Shown here: piece by piece, positions 3,255 through 62,997 of the stretch
How the letters are laid out: each line of letters opens with the position of its first letter
How positions within the stretch are numbered: the stretch's first letter is position 1
Source: Candidatus Nomurabacteria bacterium
Lineage (GTDB): Bacteria > Patescibacteriota > Minisyncoccia > Phycocordibacterales > UBA5272
NCBI GenBank assembly: GCA_029288775.1
Contig: JARIGQ010000006.1
Coordinates: 64,120-128,119 of the forward strand
Direction: 5' to 3'
Length of the DNA: 64,000 nucleotides
The notes under the pieces: generated by a model
What the model was told of the DNA's origin: nothing
Database searches by the model: none
What the model saw: the letters and a program-made list of their open reading frames with translations, nothing else
Translations under genes and position numbers: made by a program

Positions 3255-3892
3255 AGAAGTTTTTTCCAAGTCTTACCAATGCTCATTCCTATCGCAGCGC
3301 CAATAAGTGCCCCGGCTATGAACTCAGAAAACCAGTGAATAGAAAACGATACCCCAATACCTACGTACAGAGCTAAAAGAAAAACCATTATTTTTAACCA
3401 CATGCGCTTAGTGGTTGTAATTACGGCAAATGCCATCGAGAATGCAACAGCTGTATGCGAGGAAGGCCATCCCCAAAATATTCCATGCTGAAGAAAGCCA
3501 AAATGGAATCCGTGGCTTCCATCAACAAGCAGATTGTGGCGATCTGGTTGAACACGACCAGTGAATGCTTTATAGAAAGAAGAAATAGCCCAACCCAAAA
3601 AGGCTGATTGGAGTATCATCCATCCGTATTCTTCTTTCATTTTCTGTTTACGGGCGGCTTCTATTCCAATAATGATAAAGGGCATGAGTATGGGGAGAAT
3701 AAATCCGCCACTTACTGCAAGGTGAAAGATTGAGGCGTACGGAAACGTCTGCATAAAAACAAAGTATTTCCAGTCAAAATCACTCCTGACAATAACGTAG
3801 GTAAGCATACATGCAAGCACCTGGAGCATCAGCAACTTACCACTATAGAATGTACGCAGAATATGAGGAATAGTTTTTAAAAAGTGCCGCAT
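3251..3892 (-). CDS. PAP2 family (phosphatidic acid phosphatase type 2) membrane phosphatase
   Basis: KxxxxxxRP-like, PSSHT and SFSIHWFSEF(I)AG motifs match the PAP2 C1/C2/C3 boxes; polytopic. Confidence 0.65.
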   Translation of the reverse strand: MRHFLKTIPHILRTFYSGKLLMLQVLACMLTYVIVRSDFDWKYFVFMQTFPYASIFHLAVSGGFILPILMPFIIIGIEAARKQKMKEEYGWMILQSAFLGWAISSFYKAFTGRVQPDRHNLLVDGSHGFHFGFLQHGIFWGWPSSHTAVAFSMAFAVITTTKRMWLKIMVFLLALYVGIGVSFSIHWFSEFIAGALIGAAIGMSIGKTWKKLL

Positions 3893-26140: not shown

Positions 26141-26173
26141 GTTAAGAAGGCTTATTTTTGCTATACTTACAGT

Positions 26174-28039
26174 ATGGATAACCAGGAAGATGAGGGGGCT
26201 CTGGAGTCACTTGAGTCAAAACTGTACGACCCTCGGGGAAAAATTGAAAACCTTACCTTTCACCACGTGCGAGACAGAAAGGAGAAAGAGCTTCCTACTT
26301 CATGGGGAGATGACGCTTTGGTTATACACGAATCAGAAGCTGAGAGCGGTCTTTCCTTTGGTGCCAAATTTTTAGTAGGAGCAGTCATTCTGCTTATCTT
26401 TGTGCTTGGTTTTGCAGCGTGGCGTGTTTTTTCAAATCGTAATGTTGTTTCAGATAAGAATATTGATCTTTCTTTAAACGTTGCGCCGTATGTGGATGGT
26501 GGAGAATCCACGCCACTTGTAGTGAACCTTACTAACAAAAACAATGTTCCTCTTGAAGAAGCCACTCTTACCCTCATGTATAAGCAGGGAATAAGCGCGG
26601 AAGATGAAGAGGAAAAAATTCAAGAAAAGGAATCCTTGGGAACTATTAATTCCGGAGAGTTTAAGCAGCAAGATTTTGATATTCAGTTGTATGGGAGCGA
26701 AGCCGAAACTCGTGACGTAACAGTAAAATTGGATTACAAGGTAAAGGGCTCCAACGCAGTGTTTAGTAAAACTGGCGTAGCGCATGTTGTACTTAAGACA
26801 CCGCCACTTTCCATTCAGGTGAGCGGACCGAAATTACTTTCCGTGGGTCAGACTGGGACATATGTCTTTACGGTGTATAACACTACTGCAACCACAAGTC
26901 AGCCGGCATTACTTCAAGCGACACTTCCAACCACGTTCCATTTAAGTGAACAATCTCCAGTGCCAAGTAATGCAAGAAATGAACTTTGGCCTATAGCGGC
27001 TCTAGCTCCCGGAGCGACAACTACTATTTCCATTACCGGAAGTTTGGGAGGCAACCAGGGTGAAACTGGCACCATAAAAGCGGCGGTTGGATCTCCTGGC
27101 GCTCAGCTTGCGTCGCTTGGTGTCGTCTATTCGTTGCAAACTTTTGATATCTCATTGAGAACCTCTCCACTCTCCACTTCATTTTCATTAGATACTCTAC
27201 GAGGCACAAGTGATACTTTGCTGTATGGTGACCGTGCAACTATTTCTATTCATTACAAGAATACGAGTTCGGACCCCATTCACGATACTCGTCTTGTGCT
27301 TTCCATTTCTGGAAACGCGCCGCTTATGAAAGGTGTTACTACCGATCGTGGGTATTATGATTCTTCGCAAGGAACCATTACCTGGGATAAGGCAACAGAT
27401 CCTCAATTCGGTGTCCTTGACCAAGGAGAAGAGGGAACGCTCATTGTAACCATTCCCATCGTGTCTTCTGGATCTAATTCTCCAAAACTTGAGCTTACCT
27501 TGGCAGGTGAGGGGACGCTTGCTTCACCGGATGATGTCACGACAACTATTTCTAAAACTTATGTTGTCCAAGGGAGTGCTAGTGTTTCCGGATCGGTGCA
27601 TTATAAAAATGCTCCGTTCCAAAATTCCGGACCCATTCCGCCACAGCCGAATGTGGACACTACGTATTCACTTCATTTTGGGGTTTCGGCTCAGAACGCG
27701 CTTCAAAACACCACTGTGTCTTTCATCTTACCGGCGTATGTAACATGGAAGAATCTTATCACTGGGGGCGCTAATGTGGCATACGATACCGGCACACGCA
27801 CGGTCACTTGGACAGTCGGCAATCTAGAAGCAGGAAAGACAACTGCAGTAGATATTGGCGTTTCGGTACGTCCTTCACAGGTGCATGTGGGTTCCATGCC
27901 ACCAATTACAAGCGGCATAGTACTTAATGCAGACGAAGTGGTTTCAAAGGCGCATATTAAGACCACACTCTCGCCTTTGACTACCTACATAAGTGGGGAA
28001 ACTTGGCCTACGGACCCTTCTACTGTGGTAGACAAATAG
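26174..28039 (+). CDS. membrane-anchored surface protein with repeated beta-sandwich (DUF11/CARDB-like) domains
   Basis: N-terminal TM, then about 550 aa of Thr/Ser/Gly-rich repeated modules. Confidence 0.4.
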   Translation: MDNQEDEGALESLESKLYDPRGKIENLTFHHVRDRKEKELPTSWGDDALVIHESEAESGLSFGAKFLVGAVILLIFVLGFAAWRVFSNRNVVSDKNIDLSLNVAPYVDGGESTPLVVNLTNKNNVPLEEATLTLMYKQGISAEDEEEKIQEKESLGTINSGEFKQQDFDIQLYGSEAETRDVTVKLDYKVKGSNAVFSKTGVAHVVLKTPPLSIQVSGPKLLSVGQTGTYVFTVYNTTATTSQPALLQATLPTTFHLSEQSPVPSNARNELWPIAALAPGATTTISITGSLGGNQGETGTIKAAVGSPGAQLASLGVVYSLQTFDISLRTSPLSTSFSLDTLRGTSDTLLYGDRATISIHYKNTSSDPIHDTRLVLSISGNAPLMKGVTTDRGYYDSSQGTITWDKATDPQFGVLDQGEEGTLIVTIPIVSSGSNSPKLELTLAGEGTLASPDDVTTTISKTYVVQGSASVSGSVHYKNAPFQNSGPIPPQPNVDTTYSLHFGVSAQNALQNTTVSFILPAYVTWKNLITGGANVAYDTGTRTVTWTVGNLEAGKTTAVDIGVSVRPSQVHVGSMPPITSGIVLNADEVVSKAHIKTTLSPLTTYISGETWPTDPSTVVDK

Positions 28040-34879: not shown

Positions 34880-35503
34880 ATGACTATTGCCATGCACCCA
34901 AAAAAGGAACGAACATTTGTAATTCTTAAGCCAGACGCGATTCAGCGTGGGCTTGTAGGGGAAATTATTAAGCGCTTTGAGCAGATCGGTCTTAAGATCG
35001 TTGCTATGAAGATGCATCGTGCAGATGAAGAAAAATTGTGGAAGCACTATAATAAGGACGATGCATGGTTCCTGAAAAAAGGTGAAAAGATTGTTGTTAA
35101 TCGACAAGGCTTGGGGCTTCCTATTGAAAAGGAGCCGATCGAATATGGTCGCGATATTATTGGGGTAGTGGTGAAATATATGCGTGCAGGACCTGTTGTG
35201 TCGCTTGTACTTGAAGGTAACAATGCAGGTAATGTAGTGAAGCGTCTTGTTGGCGGTACAGAGCCAGCAACGGCGGATACAGGAACTATACGTGGAGACT
35301 TTGCGCTCGATTCATATTATTTGTGTGATGTGGATGGCTCTCGCGGTATGCGTAATCTTATTCATTGTACCGATCCTGCAGACGGAGATGATGCAGCAGA
35401 GCGTGAGATTGGCTTATGGTTTACGGAAGATGAAATTATGCAGTATAAGCATATTGCAGAAGCTATGCTCTATGATGTCGACCTCGACGGCATGATGGAA
35501 TAA
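34880..35503 (+). CDS. ndk: nucleoside-diphosphate kinase (with insertion)
   Basis: ERTFVILKPDAIQRGLVGEIIKRFEQIGLKIVAMK ... RNLIHCTD (catalytic His retained). Confidence 0.8.
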   Translation: MTIAMHPKKERTFVILKPDAIQRGLVGEIIKRFEQIGLKIVAMKMHRADEEKLWKHYNKDDAWFLKKGEKIVVNRQGLGLPIEKEPIEYGRDIIGVVVKYMRAGPVVSLVLEGNNAGNVVKRLVGGTEPATADTGTIRGDFALDSYYLCDVDGSRGMRNLIHCTDPADGDDAAEREIGLWFTEDEIMQYKHIAEAMLYDVDLDGMME

Positions 35504-35772
35504 TCTTATAAGAATTATTTCTTAGAAAAGTAAAAAGAAAAAGCAAGTAACCTTGCTTTTTCTTTTTCTCAAAGGAAGGCGAAAATCCATTTGTAAAGCT
35601 CTTGGAGCTTGAGTGGGCGAAGGGGAAGGATGTTTCTACCAAGAAAATACCTTTATTTTCAAGGGTTTTTTATGGGATGGCCACTTATCCACATAAGTCC
35701 CAGAAATTTGATTTGACAATGCTTGCAAACTTTTCTGTGAAAGAATATACCTAACTATAGGTGCTGATGTTT

Positions 35773-35936
35773 CCATCTGCATATACCGTTTTCCGGGCTT
35801 CATGGAATATTGAGATTTGGTCGCGGCCATATCCGTTTCCTGCCCACTTGAGCTTCATATCCAGATGGACGTTCAATTTAGCACCTCGCCTATGGAAAGA
35901 GCCGCATAAAGTTCCATACTTCTCATGCGGTTTTTT
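35773..35936 (+). ncRNA. candidate structured RNA, copy 1 (closing stem CCATCTG/CAGATGG) plus intrinsic terminator
   Basis: paralogous to copy 2; conserved core CCGGGCT..ATGGAATATTG.G.T..GGTCG.GGCC...TTTCCTGCCCAC.TGA; terminator GCCGCAT...ATGCGGTTTTTT. Confidence 0.4.
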
Positions 35937-36024
35937 CCTAAAAAAGTTTTGTAAGATTTCCGGTACTCAATCGTCCTACCAAAGCGATTGTTTTTTATTT
36001 TAAGATATTTATACTAAGAGTGGA

Positions 36025-36181
36025 GGACCAGGAAATTTTTCTGGATACCGCATCTCCGGGCTATGGAATATTGGGTTAAGGTCGAGGCCTCAACCTTTTC
36101 CTGCCCACCTGACATTTTGATCAGGAAGATGCCCTGGTCCTCTGTTTAAGAGCCGCCCCTCTGAAAAGAAGGGCGGTTTTT
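36025..36181 (+). ncRNA. candidate structured RNA, copy 2 (closing stem GGACCAGG/CCTGGTCC) plus intrinsic terminator
   Basis: same conserved core; compensatory CGG..CCG -> AGG..CCT change; -10-like TATACT just upstream; terminator CCGCCC...GGGCGGTTTTT. Confidence 0.4.
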
Positions 36182-36199
36182 GATGGTATACTTTTTAGC

Positions 36200-36559
36200 A
36201 TGAAGCAGATTATCATCTCCGTCCTCTACCTTGTTATAGTATTTCTGGTATCTCAGTTTATTTTCGAGCCTTCACATCTTTACTATGAGCTCTGGTGGTT
36301 GGATATTCCTATGCACATTATGGGTGGGTTTGGAGTTGCGTCACTTGTGGTTGCTGTTTCTGAATATTATAAAAAACCTGTTTCCTTGTCTAAACTTTTC
36401 CTTGTCTATGCAGTCGTTGCTATCACATGGGAAGTGTATGAATATGCTCATGATGTAGTGACGTATACAACGTGGAATGGATGGTTTGATACGGTTAAAG
36501 ATTTTATAGATGGAACCATCGGTATGTATCTTGCCTATCTTCTTATTAAGCATAAATAA
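36200..36559 (+). CDS. small membrane protein (possibly VanZ-like)
   Basis: 119 aa, 3-4 TM helices; TATACT -10 is 7 nt before the ATG. Confidence 0.35.
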   Translation: MKQIIISVLYLVIVFLVSQFIFEPSHLYYELWWLDIPMHIMGGFGVASLVVAVSEYYKKPVSLSKLFLVYAVVAITWEVYEYAHDVVTYTTWNGWFDTVKDFIDGTIGMYLAYLLIKHK

Positions 36560-57089: not shown

Positions 57090-57146
57090 CAAATAATGCT
57101 GTATTTGTGTGCCCGGATATTTTTCGTGGTTTGCTATACTTAAATT

Positions 57147-57704
57147 ATGTTAGACAATACGGCACTTGTTCAGTCGGCTAATTATTGGTTTGCAACAATC
57201 GCTCTCATTGGGCTTGCGTTTGTGGCAATTTGGATCGTGGATCTTTTTTTTGGCGCACTTTGGATGCCGAATTGGAAAAAAAGAATGTACGCGGGATTTG
57301 AGAATTTTGTATTACCTTTTGGGTTTTTCATTTCACTTTTTGCAACGCTTGGGTCGCTGTACTACCAATTCCATCTTGGTATTCAGCCGTGCGAACTATG
57401 CTGGTTTGCGCGTATTTTCATCTACCCGCAAGTCTTTATCTTTGGTATGGCGTGGTACAAAAATGATCGCCGTATCTTTGATTATCTGATGATGCTTTCT
57501 GTGTTTGGAATTATCATCGGCCTCTATCATCATTTTCTTCAAATGGGGTATGATTTGTATAAGCCGTGTGGCACAGGACTCTTTGTTGATTGTTCGGTGC
57601 CAACGTTTGTAGAGTATGGGTTCATGACGTATCCGCTTATGGGAGTAGTAACGAACGCGCTTACATTTTTGACGGCGTATTCCGCAAAGAAGTTTCAAAA
57701 GTAA
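57147..57704 (+). CDS. disulfide bond formation protein B (DsbB/BdbC-like)
   Basis: 4 TM with CELCW and CGTG...C cysteine pairs in the two periplasmic loops. Confidence 0.6.
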   Translation: MLDNTALVQSANYWFATIALIGLAFVAIWIVDLFFGALWMPNWKKRMYAGFENFVLPFGFFISLFATLGSLYYQFHLGIQPCELCWFARIFIYPQVFIFGMAWYKNDRRIFDYLMMLSVFGIIIGLYHHFLQMGYDLYKPCGTGLFVDCSVPTFVEYGFMTYPLMGVVTNALTFLTAYSAKKFQK

Positions 57705-59853: not shown

Positions 59854-60044
59854 TAGGGGTCTTCGCGAGCTTCAGGGTAACTTGTAGCAAACGGAGAATT
59901 TCAGTAGTAAATTGTCAAAGCAAGAGCAGCTGCGGAAGATAGATCAGAAAACTCTCAAATGTTTCTGATTACAAACGTCTTCTGATGACGCTGCAAACAT
60001 TACACACATTGTGCATTTTTGTTTTTCTTTTGTCACACTCTATT

Positions 60045-61592
<1,548 letters not shown>

Positions 61593-61820
61593 TGAAATCG
61601 GTCAACATACCTATTTAATAGGGTGTATGATTCTTGTCGAACTATTGTTTTCAATAGAGGAATTGATAGTGATCCTTAACACTATCCGCGTTACAGCGAA
61701 AGGTAACACAAGTCGCGCAAGCGCTAGAGTGTGACAAAAGAAAGATGTGAAATCTCAATGTGTGTAATGTAATGAAATAGCCCCGATCGCTACGCGATCG
61801 GGGCTTCTCCGTTTTCGGAT

Positions 61821-62670: not shown

Positions 62671-62743
62671 GCGCGAATAGCTCAGCTGGTAGAGCACTCG
62701 ACTGATACTCGAGCGGTCCCAAGTTCGAATCTTGGTTCGCGCA
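62671..62743 (+). tRNA. tRNA-Ile (anticodon GAU)
   Basis: acceptor GCGCGAA/TTCGCGC, anticodon loop cTGATAc, T-loop TTCGAAT; usual 16S-23S spacer tRNA. Confidence 0.85.
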
Positions 62744-62796
62744 CATGGAAACAAAAAGACGGGCAACTAATTGAGCGCGTCTTTTTGTTTTTACTT

Positions 62797-62934
62797 ATGA
62801 ACCAAGATTCGAACGGGGAAAGGGGTCGGGAAAACGGATAAAGTTTTCCCGTGGCGGAAGAATGGAAACCGAGGGGTTTCCAAACCGAAATGAGTGATAA
62901 CGAATGGAGGTTGTGAGATTCTTGGTTCGCGCAC
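62797..62934. repeat. tRNA-Ile 3'-end-derived repeats: inverted copy (62797-62812) and direct copy (62917-62934) enclosing about 105 nt
   Basis: GAACCAAGATTCGAAC is the reverse complement of the tRNA T-arm/acceptor; GATTCTTGGTTCGCGCAC repeats tRNA positions 62727-62744. Confidence 0.45.
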
Positions 62935-62997
62935 CAATAGACAAAACCACTCGCATCTTGTAGAGTGGTTTTGTTCTTTGTCCTTGAGGGGGTTTCT

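Follow-up and report, generated by a model that had tools for sequence, protein, structure and literature searches.

Small-RNA genes between ndk and the DUF2238 gene

Here, we analysed a stretch of 64,000 nucleotides (nt) from Candidatus Nomurabacteria bacterium (contig JARIGQ010000006.1, positions 64,120 to 128,119), hereafter referred to as the window, in which two related structured RNAs, RNA1 and RNA2, are encoded between two protein genes. The gene on the left (34880-35503) is NDK-like (Pfam NDK, E = 2e-35). The gene on the right (36200-36559) encodes a membrane protein of 119 amino acids, for which our own Pfam scan gave no significant match; PF09997 (DUF2238) is precomputed on its homologues, and the gene will be called DUF2238 below. 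The gap of about 700 nt between NDK and DUF2238 has no convincing open reading frame, as an initial annotation of this DNA had stated. Protein coding was rejected, since the possible reading frames differ between the two RNA copies on both strands and the mini reading frame MEY* of copy 1 is open in copy 2. The core ATGGAATATTGNGNTNNGGTCGNGGCC occurs exactly twice in the window, at 35802-35828 and 36063-36089, with zero occurrences expected by chance, and TTTCCTGCCCAC is also found exactly twice, so that the two + strand units with a shared core that had been described are indeed present. Both units fold better than shuffled sequences, with z-scores of -2.7 to -4.2. At the gathering threshold, Rfam 15 recognized only the 16S rRNA, the tmRNA and two tRNAs in the whole window. 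No Rfam 15 family matched the RNA1 or RNA2 unit at this threshold, and a scan of 35500-36250 at E<=10 returned noise only, in line with the earlier remark that no known riboswitch class could be matched.

Judged from the sequence, RNA1 (~35759-35936) and RNA2 (~36022-36181) are independently transcribed paralogous small-RNA genes of Paceibacteria/Nomurabacteria-type Patescibacteria. Their parts, and the start of the DUF2238 gene, are the following, with the names of the helices as used throughout.

35723-28 and 35746-51, + strand: RNA1 promoter, TTGCAA and TATACC with a 17-nt spacer (read from the sequence; same layout in relatives)
35759..35886, + strand: structured core of RNA1, the copy 1 or alpha paralogue (RNA2 covariance model, covariation and minimum free energy (MFE) fold)
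35759-67 with 35878-86, + strand: RNA1 helix I, outermost, AGGTGCTGA/TTTAGCACCT
35773-79 with 35862-68, + strand: RNA1 helix P2 (strand X with X'), CCATCTG/CAGATGG
35795-98 with 35842-45, + strand: RNA1 P1 in rod B, GGGC/GCCC
35804-07 with 35837-40, + strand: RNA1 P2' in rod B, GGAA/TTCC
35818-21 with 35826-29, + strand: RNA1 apical stem, UGGU and GCCA, loop CGCG
within 35887..35936, + strand: RNA1 3' tail CGCCUAUGGAAAGAG, which in relatives reads CCUCC(U/A)CU(U/A)U(G/A)GAAA
35902-07 with 35925-30, + strand: RNA1 intrinsic terminator, CCGCAT/ATGCGG, T-run 35931-36
35988-93 and 36010-15, + strand: RNA2 promoter, TTGTTT and TATACT with a 16-nt spacer (read from the sequence)
36022..36143, + strand: structured core of RNA2, copy 2 (covariance model R1, 56 loci)
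36022-32 with 36133-43, + strand: RNA2 helix I, outermost, GGACCAGG/CCTGGTCC
36033-47, + strand: RNA2 strand X, the 5' strand of P2, 14-15 nt, UAUUUUUCUGGAUA
36050-55 with 36127-32, + strand: RNA2 helix A, GCATCT/AGATGC
36058-61 with 36103-06, + strand: RNA2 P1 in rod B
36065-68 with 36098-101, + strand: RNA2 P2' in rod B
36073-77 with 36092-96, + strand: RNA2 P3 in rod B
36079-82 with 36087-90, + strand: RNA2 apical stem, loop CGAG
36108-12 with 36121-25, + strand: RNA2 hairpin C, CCTGA/TCAGG
X (~36035-44) with 36121-31, + strand: RNA2 alternative helix P2
36153-58 with 36171-76, + strand: RNA2 intrinsic terminator, CCGCCC/GGGCGG, T-run 36177-81
36184-92, + strand: promoter of DUF2238 itself, extended -10 box TGGTATACT, 7 nt before the ATG at 36200

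In both RNA genes, 6 nt separate the -10 box from the first paired nucleotide, which places the starts at ~35759 for RNA1 and ~36022 for RNA2, and a -35-like hexamer is located 16-17 nt upstream of each -10 box. This layout is retained in relatives, where the RNA2 promoter is composed of TTTACA/TTAGCA, about 17 nt and TATAAT at an unchanged distance from helix I. What comes after RNA1 is the RNA2 promoter and not a gene. Each unit ends in a GC-rich hairpin followed by a T-run (35902-35936 and 36153-36181), confirming the terminator per unit of the initial annotation, and a terminator stands after RNA2 in every relative read. Neither terminator hairpin (35902-36, 36153-81) shares bases with helix I, X, helix A or hairpin C; they lie outside the structured core, and therefore there is no expression platform and no antiterminator is possible. 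The TGGTATACT-type box upstream of DUF2238 is kept in the relatives L003, L004, L005, L009 and L076, and the DUF2238 mRNA is probably leaderless. Because both RNAs have promoters and terminators of their own and DUF2238 has its own promoter, we describe them as free-standing small-RNA genes and not as riboswitches. Thus, of the two identities offered initially, tandem riboswitch aptamers or a small RNA family, the latter held, while the former fell with the separate promoters and the missing expression platform. The structured cores measure ~122-130 nt (RNA2 ~122), which is larger than the ~110 nt first assigned to a unit, and the transcripts including the terminator are predicted to be ~160-180 nt long.

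Relatives were sampled from the contigs of 88 DUF2238 homologue clusters, from 43 species-representative genomes and from 12 contigs found with a pure DNA pattern, independent of the protein search. They are metagenome-assembled genomes of Patescibacteria labelled Paceibacterota, Nomurabacteria or Parcubacteria, together with some third-party annotation assemblies labelled Saccharibacteria. The gene order S6-SSB-S18-NDK-(small RNAs)-DUF2238-betaCASP RNase-LOG-like-(L20/L35/IF3) is kept among them. The covariance model R1, built from 14 copy-2 sequences (alignment A3), detects RNA2 at 56 loci with 67-149 bits. At all 56 loci, including the 12 found by pattern, RNA2 is on the DUF2238 strand and 55-200 nt upstream of that gene, and it is present there in every relative with enough upstream sequence. 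The same model aligns RNA1 over its full length at 22-50 bits in the window and at about 10 other loci; in the window, the alignment spans 35758-35888 (50.3 bits, E = 7e-11). RNA1 and RNA2 are therefore full-length paralogues, and this match, together with strong covariation across relatives, bears out the initial view of functional, structured, paralogous RNAs. Within the genomes sampled, RNA2 is universal in the clade, and RNA1 is a patchy, faster-evolving paralogue. The scan of metagenomes with the DNA pattern gave 12 true RNA2 sequences among 35 matches, so that the family, as this pattern defines it, is confined to a narrow lineage. As to a mobile or viral origin, there were 0 matches in viral contigs and none in phage records.

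Two further elements precede the RNA1 promoter. A perfect DnaA-box-like 9-mer, TTATCCACA, is found at 35685-35693 (+ strand), about 30 nt upstream of the -35 hexamer of RNA1. It belongs to a block, TTATCCACATAAnnCnCAGAAATTT, that is kept in L003 (85-110), L004 (3475-3500), L005 (3251-3275), L008 (~1950-1975), L009 and L076 (~410-435); L008 and L009 have two boxes of this type. An origin of replication at this position was ruled out because the GC skew is monotonic and keeps its sign across the window. The 9-mer may be the binding site of a regulator. Further upstream, a conserved block of ~80 nt (35590-35672) follows the ndk terminator, ahead of the RNA1 promoter; it is composed of CUCUUGGAGC..GGGCGAAGGGGAAGGAUGUUUCUACCAAGAAAAUACC and a terminator-like hairpin. 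This block is common to L008 (~1860-1935) and, loosely, L005, and is not found in most relatives; it may correspond to a further small transcript or to an element of a 3' untranslated region.

Two mutually exclusive folds

RNA2 can be described as a three-way junction, which comprises helix I, helix A (GCAUCU/AGAUGC), rod B (P1, P2', P3 and an apical stem with a YGNG loop) and hairpin C (CCUGA/UCAGG). In the 56 RNA2 sequences, 52 of which are distinct, 95.1% of the cells are paired in this model, compared with 82% in shuffles, and double changes occur at 29 of its 37 pairs, in 246 cells compared with 38-56 cells in slid controls. None of 500 shuffles reached these measures, and a set of 47 sequences gave a similar picture. 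The alignment used here was fitted to the three-way-junction model and therefore leans towards it. In an unfitted MAFFT/RNAalifold analysis, helix I, P1, P2' and the apical stem already covary, and the changes in helix A and hairpin C are visible by eye in the unfitted sequences. Helix A has double changes in all six of its pairs. Hairpin C changes from CCUGA/UCAGG to CUUGA/UCAAG, CCUUU/AAAGG or CCUGU/ACAGG, and helix I is also found as AGGUGCUUAGG/CCUAGGCACCU in some species (L027, L035). Strand X, located between helix I and helix A, is unpaired in the three-way junction and is nearly invariant. RNAs of the RNA1 type also retain counterparts of helix A and hairpin C, in which the paired sequences are different, for example GUAUCA/UGAUAC and UCCAUC/GAUGGA.

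The unfitted alignment also reveals a second fold. RNAalifold preferably pairs X with UCAGGAAGAUG, which consists of the 3' strands of hairpin C and helix A. The resulting rod, in which X is paired as helix P2, and the three-way junction are mutually exclusive. P2 is 96% paired in RNA2, and its pairs have changed in several relatives: U-A is replaced by A-U in L061, compared with its near-identical sister L074, and also in L028, L030 and L046, and a U-G to C-G change occurs in L054. In L043, L052 and L053 a C-G pair has become U-A, and the partner in hairpin C has changed as well, which makes this a three-way covariation. In RNA1-type RNAs, the sequences of X and of its partner differ widely from those of RNA2 (CCAUCUG/CAGAUGG, AUGUAUCUG/CAGAUACAU, AACUAUCU/AGAUAGUU). 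In a MAFFT alignment of nine alpha sequences, not fitted to any structure, six of the nine P2 pairs show double changes, in 22 cells compared with 0-7 in slid controls, a result equalled by 0 of 500 shuffles. Helix I also covaries across the nine alpha sequences, and P1 and P2' of RNA1 covary as well.

The unconstrained MFE structure is the rod in 44 of the 52 distinct RNA2 sequences. When X is forbidden to pair, it is the three-way junction in 46 of the 52. The rod of RNA2 has a bubble of ~13 nt in the 5' strand and ~15 nt in the 3' strand, which separates a closing arm of ~22 base pairs (helix I and P2) from an apical arm of ~16-20 base pairs. In RNA1, a central bubble likewise lies between P2 and the apical arm, rod B; in the MFE rod of this type it measures ~16/17 nt and includes a small 3' hairpin. 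RNA1 and RNA2 are each predicted to be able to switch between the two exclusive folds.

These structures change the assignment of some helices in the initial annotation. The stems CCATCTG/CAGATGG (35773-79 and 35862-68) and GGACCAGG/CCTGGTCC (within 36022-32 and 36133-43) exist as described, but they are not equivalent outer stems: the former is P2 of RNA1, and the latter is helix I of RNA2. An internal helix with a compensatory change from CGG...CCG to AGG...CCT had also been proposed; it falls outside the supported structure, and its bases belong to the apical loop, the apical stem and P3. The compensatory differences that do exist between the copies are in the apical stem (UGGU/GCCA in RNA1, AGGU/GCCU in RNA2) and in P3.

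A complementarity between the two RNAs can also be noticed. Part of X of RNA2 (UCUGGAUA, 36040-36047) is perfectly complementary to UAUCCAGA (35857-35864) in the 3' strand of P2 of RNA1, so that RNA1 and RNA2 could pair in trans. This is kept in L003 and L004 but not in L005 or L013, and it may reflect paralogy only.

The intergenic cluster and the gene starts of the window

In relatives, the intergenic cluster is composed of two to three small-RNA genes with a common promoter type. They share the 5' end AGGUGCUU and the 3' end AAG(C/U)ACCUCC(A/U)CUAUAGAAAA, which is followed by a terminator. Their interiors differ and define the alpha (RNA1) type, a beta type (...GUCAGAUnnUGCAUAGUCGUUCGUGACGCAUGUCUC...) and others. 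Genes of the beta type are ~120-126 nt long and have the 5' end AGGUGCUU and the 3' end GUACCUCCACUAUAGAAAA with a terminator, as in the RNA1 type, around a distinct and conserved interior, CCUUCGAAGG ... GUCAGAUnnUGCAUAGUCGUUCGUGACGCAUGUCUCUCU. Beta RNAs fold well (z -3.5 to -5.0) and match no Rfam family, and an Rfam 15 scan of the three-RNA locus in L013 at E<=10 returned noise only. There is no beta copy at the locus of the window itself. Beta genes are found at these positions, among others:

L013, 1116-1239
L017, 303-423
L032, 1496-1616
L050, 1959-2080
L009, 2144-2269
L047, 2081-2206

Additional sequence is found within the cluster in two relatives. In L005 (~3500-3760), the RNA1 terminator and the RNA2 promoter are separated by an extra ~250 nt, which include GGGCAGGCGAGCGGGAGGUAACUUUUCAGCAGAAAAGUAUACC, related to the block 35590-35672 of the window. 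In L003 (~535-700), an element has been inserted at the 3' end of RNA2 and brings a replacement RNA2 3' end. The intergenic cluster is an insertion hotspot. The L003 element is related to one of ~150 nt in the window (62790-62945), located just past tRNA-Ile (62671-62744) and the terminator of that tRNA. The latter element opens with an inverted copy of the tRNA T-arm, contains GGGGTCGG...CCGTGGCGGAA...GAAACCGAGGGGTTTCCAAA and closes with a second copy of the tRNA 3' end (GATTCTTGGTTCGCGCACCA). It has no match to an Rfam family and resembles a small mobile element that would insert at the 3' ends of genes for structured RNAs.

Among the 80 long open reading frames of the window, the 5-mers most enriched upstream are TATAC, ATACT, TGGTA and TGCTA, which combine into an extended -10 box, TGnTATACT, ending ~7 nt before the ATG; the -10 box of RNA1 is of the same TATAC/ATACT type. 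GGAGG shows no enrichment upstream of these reading frames. Examples of start regions of the TGnTATACT type are:

36184-36202, in the window
26160-26175, in the window
57130-57148, in the window

Because the -10 box ends ~7 nt before the ATG and GGAGG is not enriched, most mRNAs of this organism appear leaderless. This pattern agrees with a 16S rRNA that lacks an anti-Shine-Dalgarno sequence. The 16S rRNA gene is located at 60042-61592, and its 3' end (61540-61600) reads ...GUCGUGGAUUAAUUCAAUG; the terminal letters are ...GGAUUAAUUC, without CCUCC, so the canonical anti-Shine-Dalgarno CCUCC that would come after GGAU is missing. Within the window, no 23S gene comes after the 16S gene, which is followed by protein genes and tRNA-Ile.

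Possible function and significance

The rod with a central bubble is the architecture of 6S RNA (PMC8876501). In 6S RNA, the product RNA (pRNA) base-pairs along the 5' side of both the bubble and P2, and its synthesis unwinds P2 (PMC8876501). The 3' strand of P2 then refolds: in 6S RNAs of the E. coli type it forms a hairpin with the 3' bubble strand, and in B. subtilis 6S-1 and the 6S RNA of Aquifex it joins the distal 5' bubble strand in a 'central bubble collapse helix' (PMC8876501). The cycle still runs to completion when 6S-1 is truncated to the bubble and two short arms (PMC8876501), and the Bacillus cereus group carries two tandem 6S genes (PMC7726162).

Since the architecture and the refolding logic of RNA1 and RNA2 correspond to those of 6S RNA, we propose that they could be a miniature 6S-type pair of RNA-polymerase decoys. 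This is the best-supported hypothesis for a function that we infer, and we would put its probability at roughly 40%. In the ground state, the RNA would be a rod composed of helix I, P2 (X paired with C'A'), rod B with its conserved internal loops and, between P2 and rod B, an open central bubble (~13-16 nt on each strand). Such a rod would imitate an open promoter and tie up the housekeeping RNA polymerase, which would use X as the template for a pRNA, predicted as 5'-AUCCAGAAAAAUA for RNA2, starting at the invariant GAUA, and as 5'-AUGCAGAUGG...-like for RNA1. Once X is occupied, the 3' strand of P2 would be freed and refold into the three-way junction: its proximal half would form hairpin C with the 3' bubble strand, and its distal half would form helix A with the distal 5' bubble strand. 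In this way, the X:pRNA hybrid would trigger hairpin C and helix A and release the polymerase. What the sequences show is the organisation of the genes, their paralogy and conservation, covariation in support of both folds, and the predicted energies; the binding of polymerase, the synthesis of pRNA and the physiological role belong to the conditional part of the proposal.

Compared with 6S RNA (ssrS, RF00013; E. coli and B. subtilis 6S-1/6S-2), RNA1 and RNA2 are alike in the predicted rod, P2, the ~13-16-nt bubble and the irregular apical arm. Both types of refolding, the E. coli hairpin and the B. subtilis/Aquifex collapse helix, have covarying counterparts in them. Furthermore, 6S RNAs are known as paralogous pairs, in tandem in the B. 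cereus group (PMC7726162), and they are encoded, as RNA1 and RNA2 are, by free-standing genes in a conserved housekeeping neighbourhood. A difference is that RNA1 and RNA2 end in their own intrinsic terminators. Ms1 RNA, a 6S-like RNA of Actinobacteria that binds the RNA polymerase core, provides another comparison. It is described as a lineage-specific rod with an internal loop, which 6S covariance models miss and which stands where 6S would be expected (PMC9130861). It differs in its size (~300 nt) and its taxon, and has no sequence relation to RNA1 or RNA2.

Several points weigh against the 6S-type proposal. No 6S model (RF00013 and related) matches RNA1 or RNA2, either at the gathering threshold or at E<=10, and their cores of ~122-130 nt are shorter than 6S RNAs, which have about 200 nt (range ~150-200 nt). 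6S RNA conserves little sequence, whereas hardly any variation is seen here in X (UAUUUUUCUGGAUA), in CCCAC and in the rod-B loop AUAUUG/GUU; these segments could instead be a site for a protein, a ligand or a target RNA. The 3' bubble strand is unlike the -10 box of the organism (TATACT). The 5' and 3' ends of RNA1 are common to the beta small RNAs, which are not rod-and-bubble shaped, and a chassis common to RNA1 and beta may point to another shared partner. Moreover, the covariation of P2 in RNA2 comes from few independent events, with 2-3 double-change pairs, a count matched by 31 of 500 shuffles, and the rod and the three-way junction are predicted to differ by ~1-3 kcal/mol in most sequences, less than the nearest-neighbour model can resolve. 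The UUGAGA in rod B resembles a -35 element but was rejected as a mimic of one, as it lies on the would-be template strand of a 6S mimic.

The invariant loops could also be explained if the RNAs were the scaffold of a ribonucleoprotein or a sensor, in which the rod-B loops (AUAUUG/GUU, UAU/U and the CCCAC junction) bind a protein or ligand that shifts the balance between rod and junction, making this a new class of switching RNA unrelated to 6S. In both paralogues these loops and the junction hardly vary, in contrast to the covarying helices around them, no known family matches, and the RNAs are strictly linked to DUF2238 and the beta-CASP RNase. As the entire S6-SSB-S18-NDK...L20 block is conserved, however, this linkage may be no more than the synteny generally kept in a narrow lineage. 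By reading of the sequence, no K-turn, loop E, GNRA loop or 11-nt GAAA receptor (UAUGG is present, CCUAAG is missing) was recognized in the loops; a hammerhead core and CsrA-type GGA loops did not fit either. On balance, we regard a scaffold or sensor as possible, if doubtful. A related and unlikely option is a new class of free-standing switching RNAs, distinct from 6S, in which the apical loops would bind a protein or metabolite and the occupancy of X, by an RNA or by a transcript made on X, would flip the rod into the junction. If true, this would be a trans-acting 'riboswitch-like' regulator in bacteria without translational control based on Shine-Dalgarno sequences. Equally unlikely in our estimation are trans-acting base-pairing small RNAs, in which X of RNA2 and/or the RNA1-type 3' tail CCUCCUCUUU would be the seed for an mRNA and the alternative fold would mask or unmask the seed or report the target. 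In favour of this, regulatory small RNAs of bacteria typically have a promoter and a terminator of their own; no stretch is more conserved than X, which is left unpaired in the three-way junction supported by covariation; and the RNA1 and beta types have a conserved, single-stranded tail that leads from helix I to the terminator. But complements of X in the 64-kb window are at chance level (16 matches with <=3 mismatches, 10.6 expected), and the sole match with one mismatch is the RNA2 gene itself. As the 16S rRNA has no CCUCC and the genes have no Shine-Dalgarno motifs, an anti-Shine-Dalgarno-type seed has nothing to mimic or block, and a mimic by means of the CACCUCC tail of RNA1 and beta was dropped on these grounds. 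A seed also leaves unexplained the conserved apical arm, the geometry of the bubble and the retained ability of the partner of X to form two further helices. Small RNAs of the csRNA or Qrr type act via short seeds on Shine-Dalgarno/AUG regions. The streptococcal csRNAs and the Qrr RNAs resemble alpha, beta and RNA2 in having several paralogous genes in one cluster (here two to three per locus, with common ends and promoter type), but this organism has no pairing of Shine-Dalgarno and anti-Shine-Dalgarno sequences, and the structure of RNA1 and RNA2 is much larger and covaries.

Tandem riboswitch aptamers that control DUF2238 by transcription termination are a very improbable alternative, which the gene organisation, as read from the promoters and terminators, has largely refuted. 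A structured RNA and a terminator do stand directly upstream of DUF2238 in every relative, and alternative pairings exist; like the tandem glycine, thiamine pyrophosphate or 2'-deoxyguanosine riboswitches, RNA1 and RNA2 are two related domains in series on one strand, here with a terminator after each. They differ from these in having a promoter on each unit, no platform overlapping the terminator, whose stems share no nucleotides with the switching strands, and no match to an aptamer or to any Rfam riboswitch class, at the gathering threshold or at E<=10. Furthermore, RNA1 is followed by an RNA gene in place of an open reading frame, and DUF2238 has a conserved promoter 7 nt before its ATG. 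We give as little credit to a divergent 5S rRNA, a divergent signal recognition particle (SRP) RNA or a repeat such as a miniature inverted-repeat transposable element (MITE). A ~120-nt core with a three-way junction closed by the 5' and 3' ends recalls 5S rRNA, and the 10-mer CCCACCUGAC is also present in E. coli 5S rRNA; the loops of the apical arm are arranged as in SRP helix 8, and the ends AGGTGCTT...AAGCACCT resemble terminal inverted repeats. Yet the Rfam models of 5S and SRP RNA found no match even at E<=10, the order of the arms is wrong for 5S rRNA, in which the asymmetric strand X (15 nt) has no counterpart, and neither a GNRA loop nor an AGCA/GGAA motif of SRP RNA is present. Against a MITE, there are only two copies in 64 kb, the locus is always the same, nothing was found in viral contigs or phage records, and the covariation is of the RNA-helix type.

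Patescibacteria, the candidate phyla radiation (CPR), to which this ultra-small bacterium belongs, make up a large share of bacterial diversity, and their gene regulation is almost unstudied; literature searches on CPR small RNAs of this kind, on 6S RNA in CPR and on the anti-Shine-Dalgarno sequence in CPR found nothing relevant. As far as the sequences tell, the conserved pair of structured small-RNA genes with a two-state architecture, absent from Rfam, is real. The covariation for two mutually exclusive folds is unusually clear in this family. The alignment of 56 RNA2 and ~11 RNA1 sequences can seed a new RNA family, and the two genes improve the annotation of an intergenic region left empty by gene callers. 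If RNA1 and RNA2 are of the 6S type, they would be the smallest natural 6S RNAs and would show which parts are indispensable, namely the bubble, P2, the release hairpin and the collapse helix. They would also open a way to study how transcription is controlled globally where genomes are tiny, promoters are dominated by the -10 box and mRNAs are leaderless. If they are not of the 6S type, they would represent a new bistable riboregulator with a defined switch.

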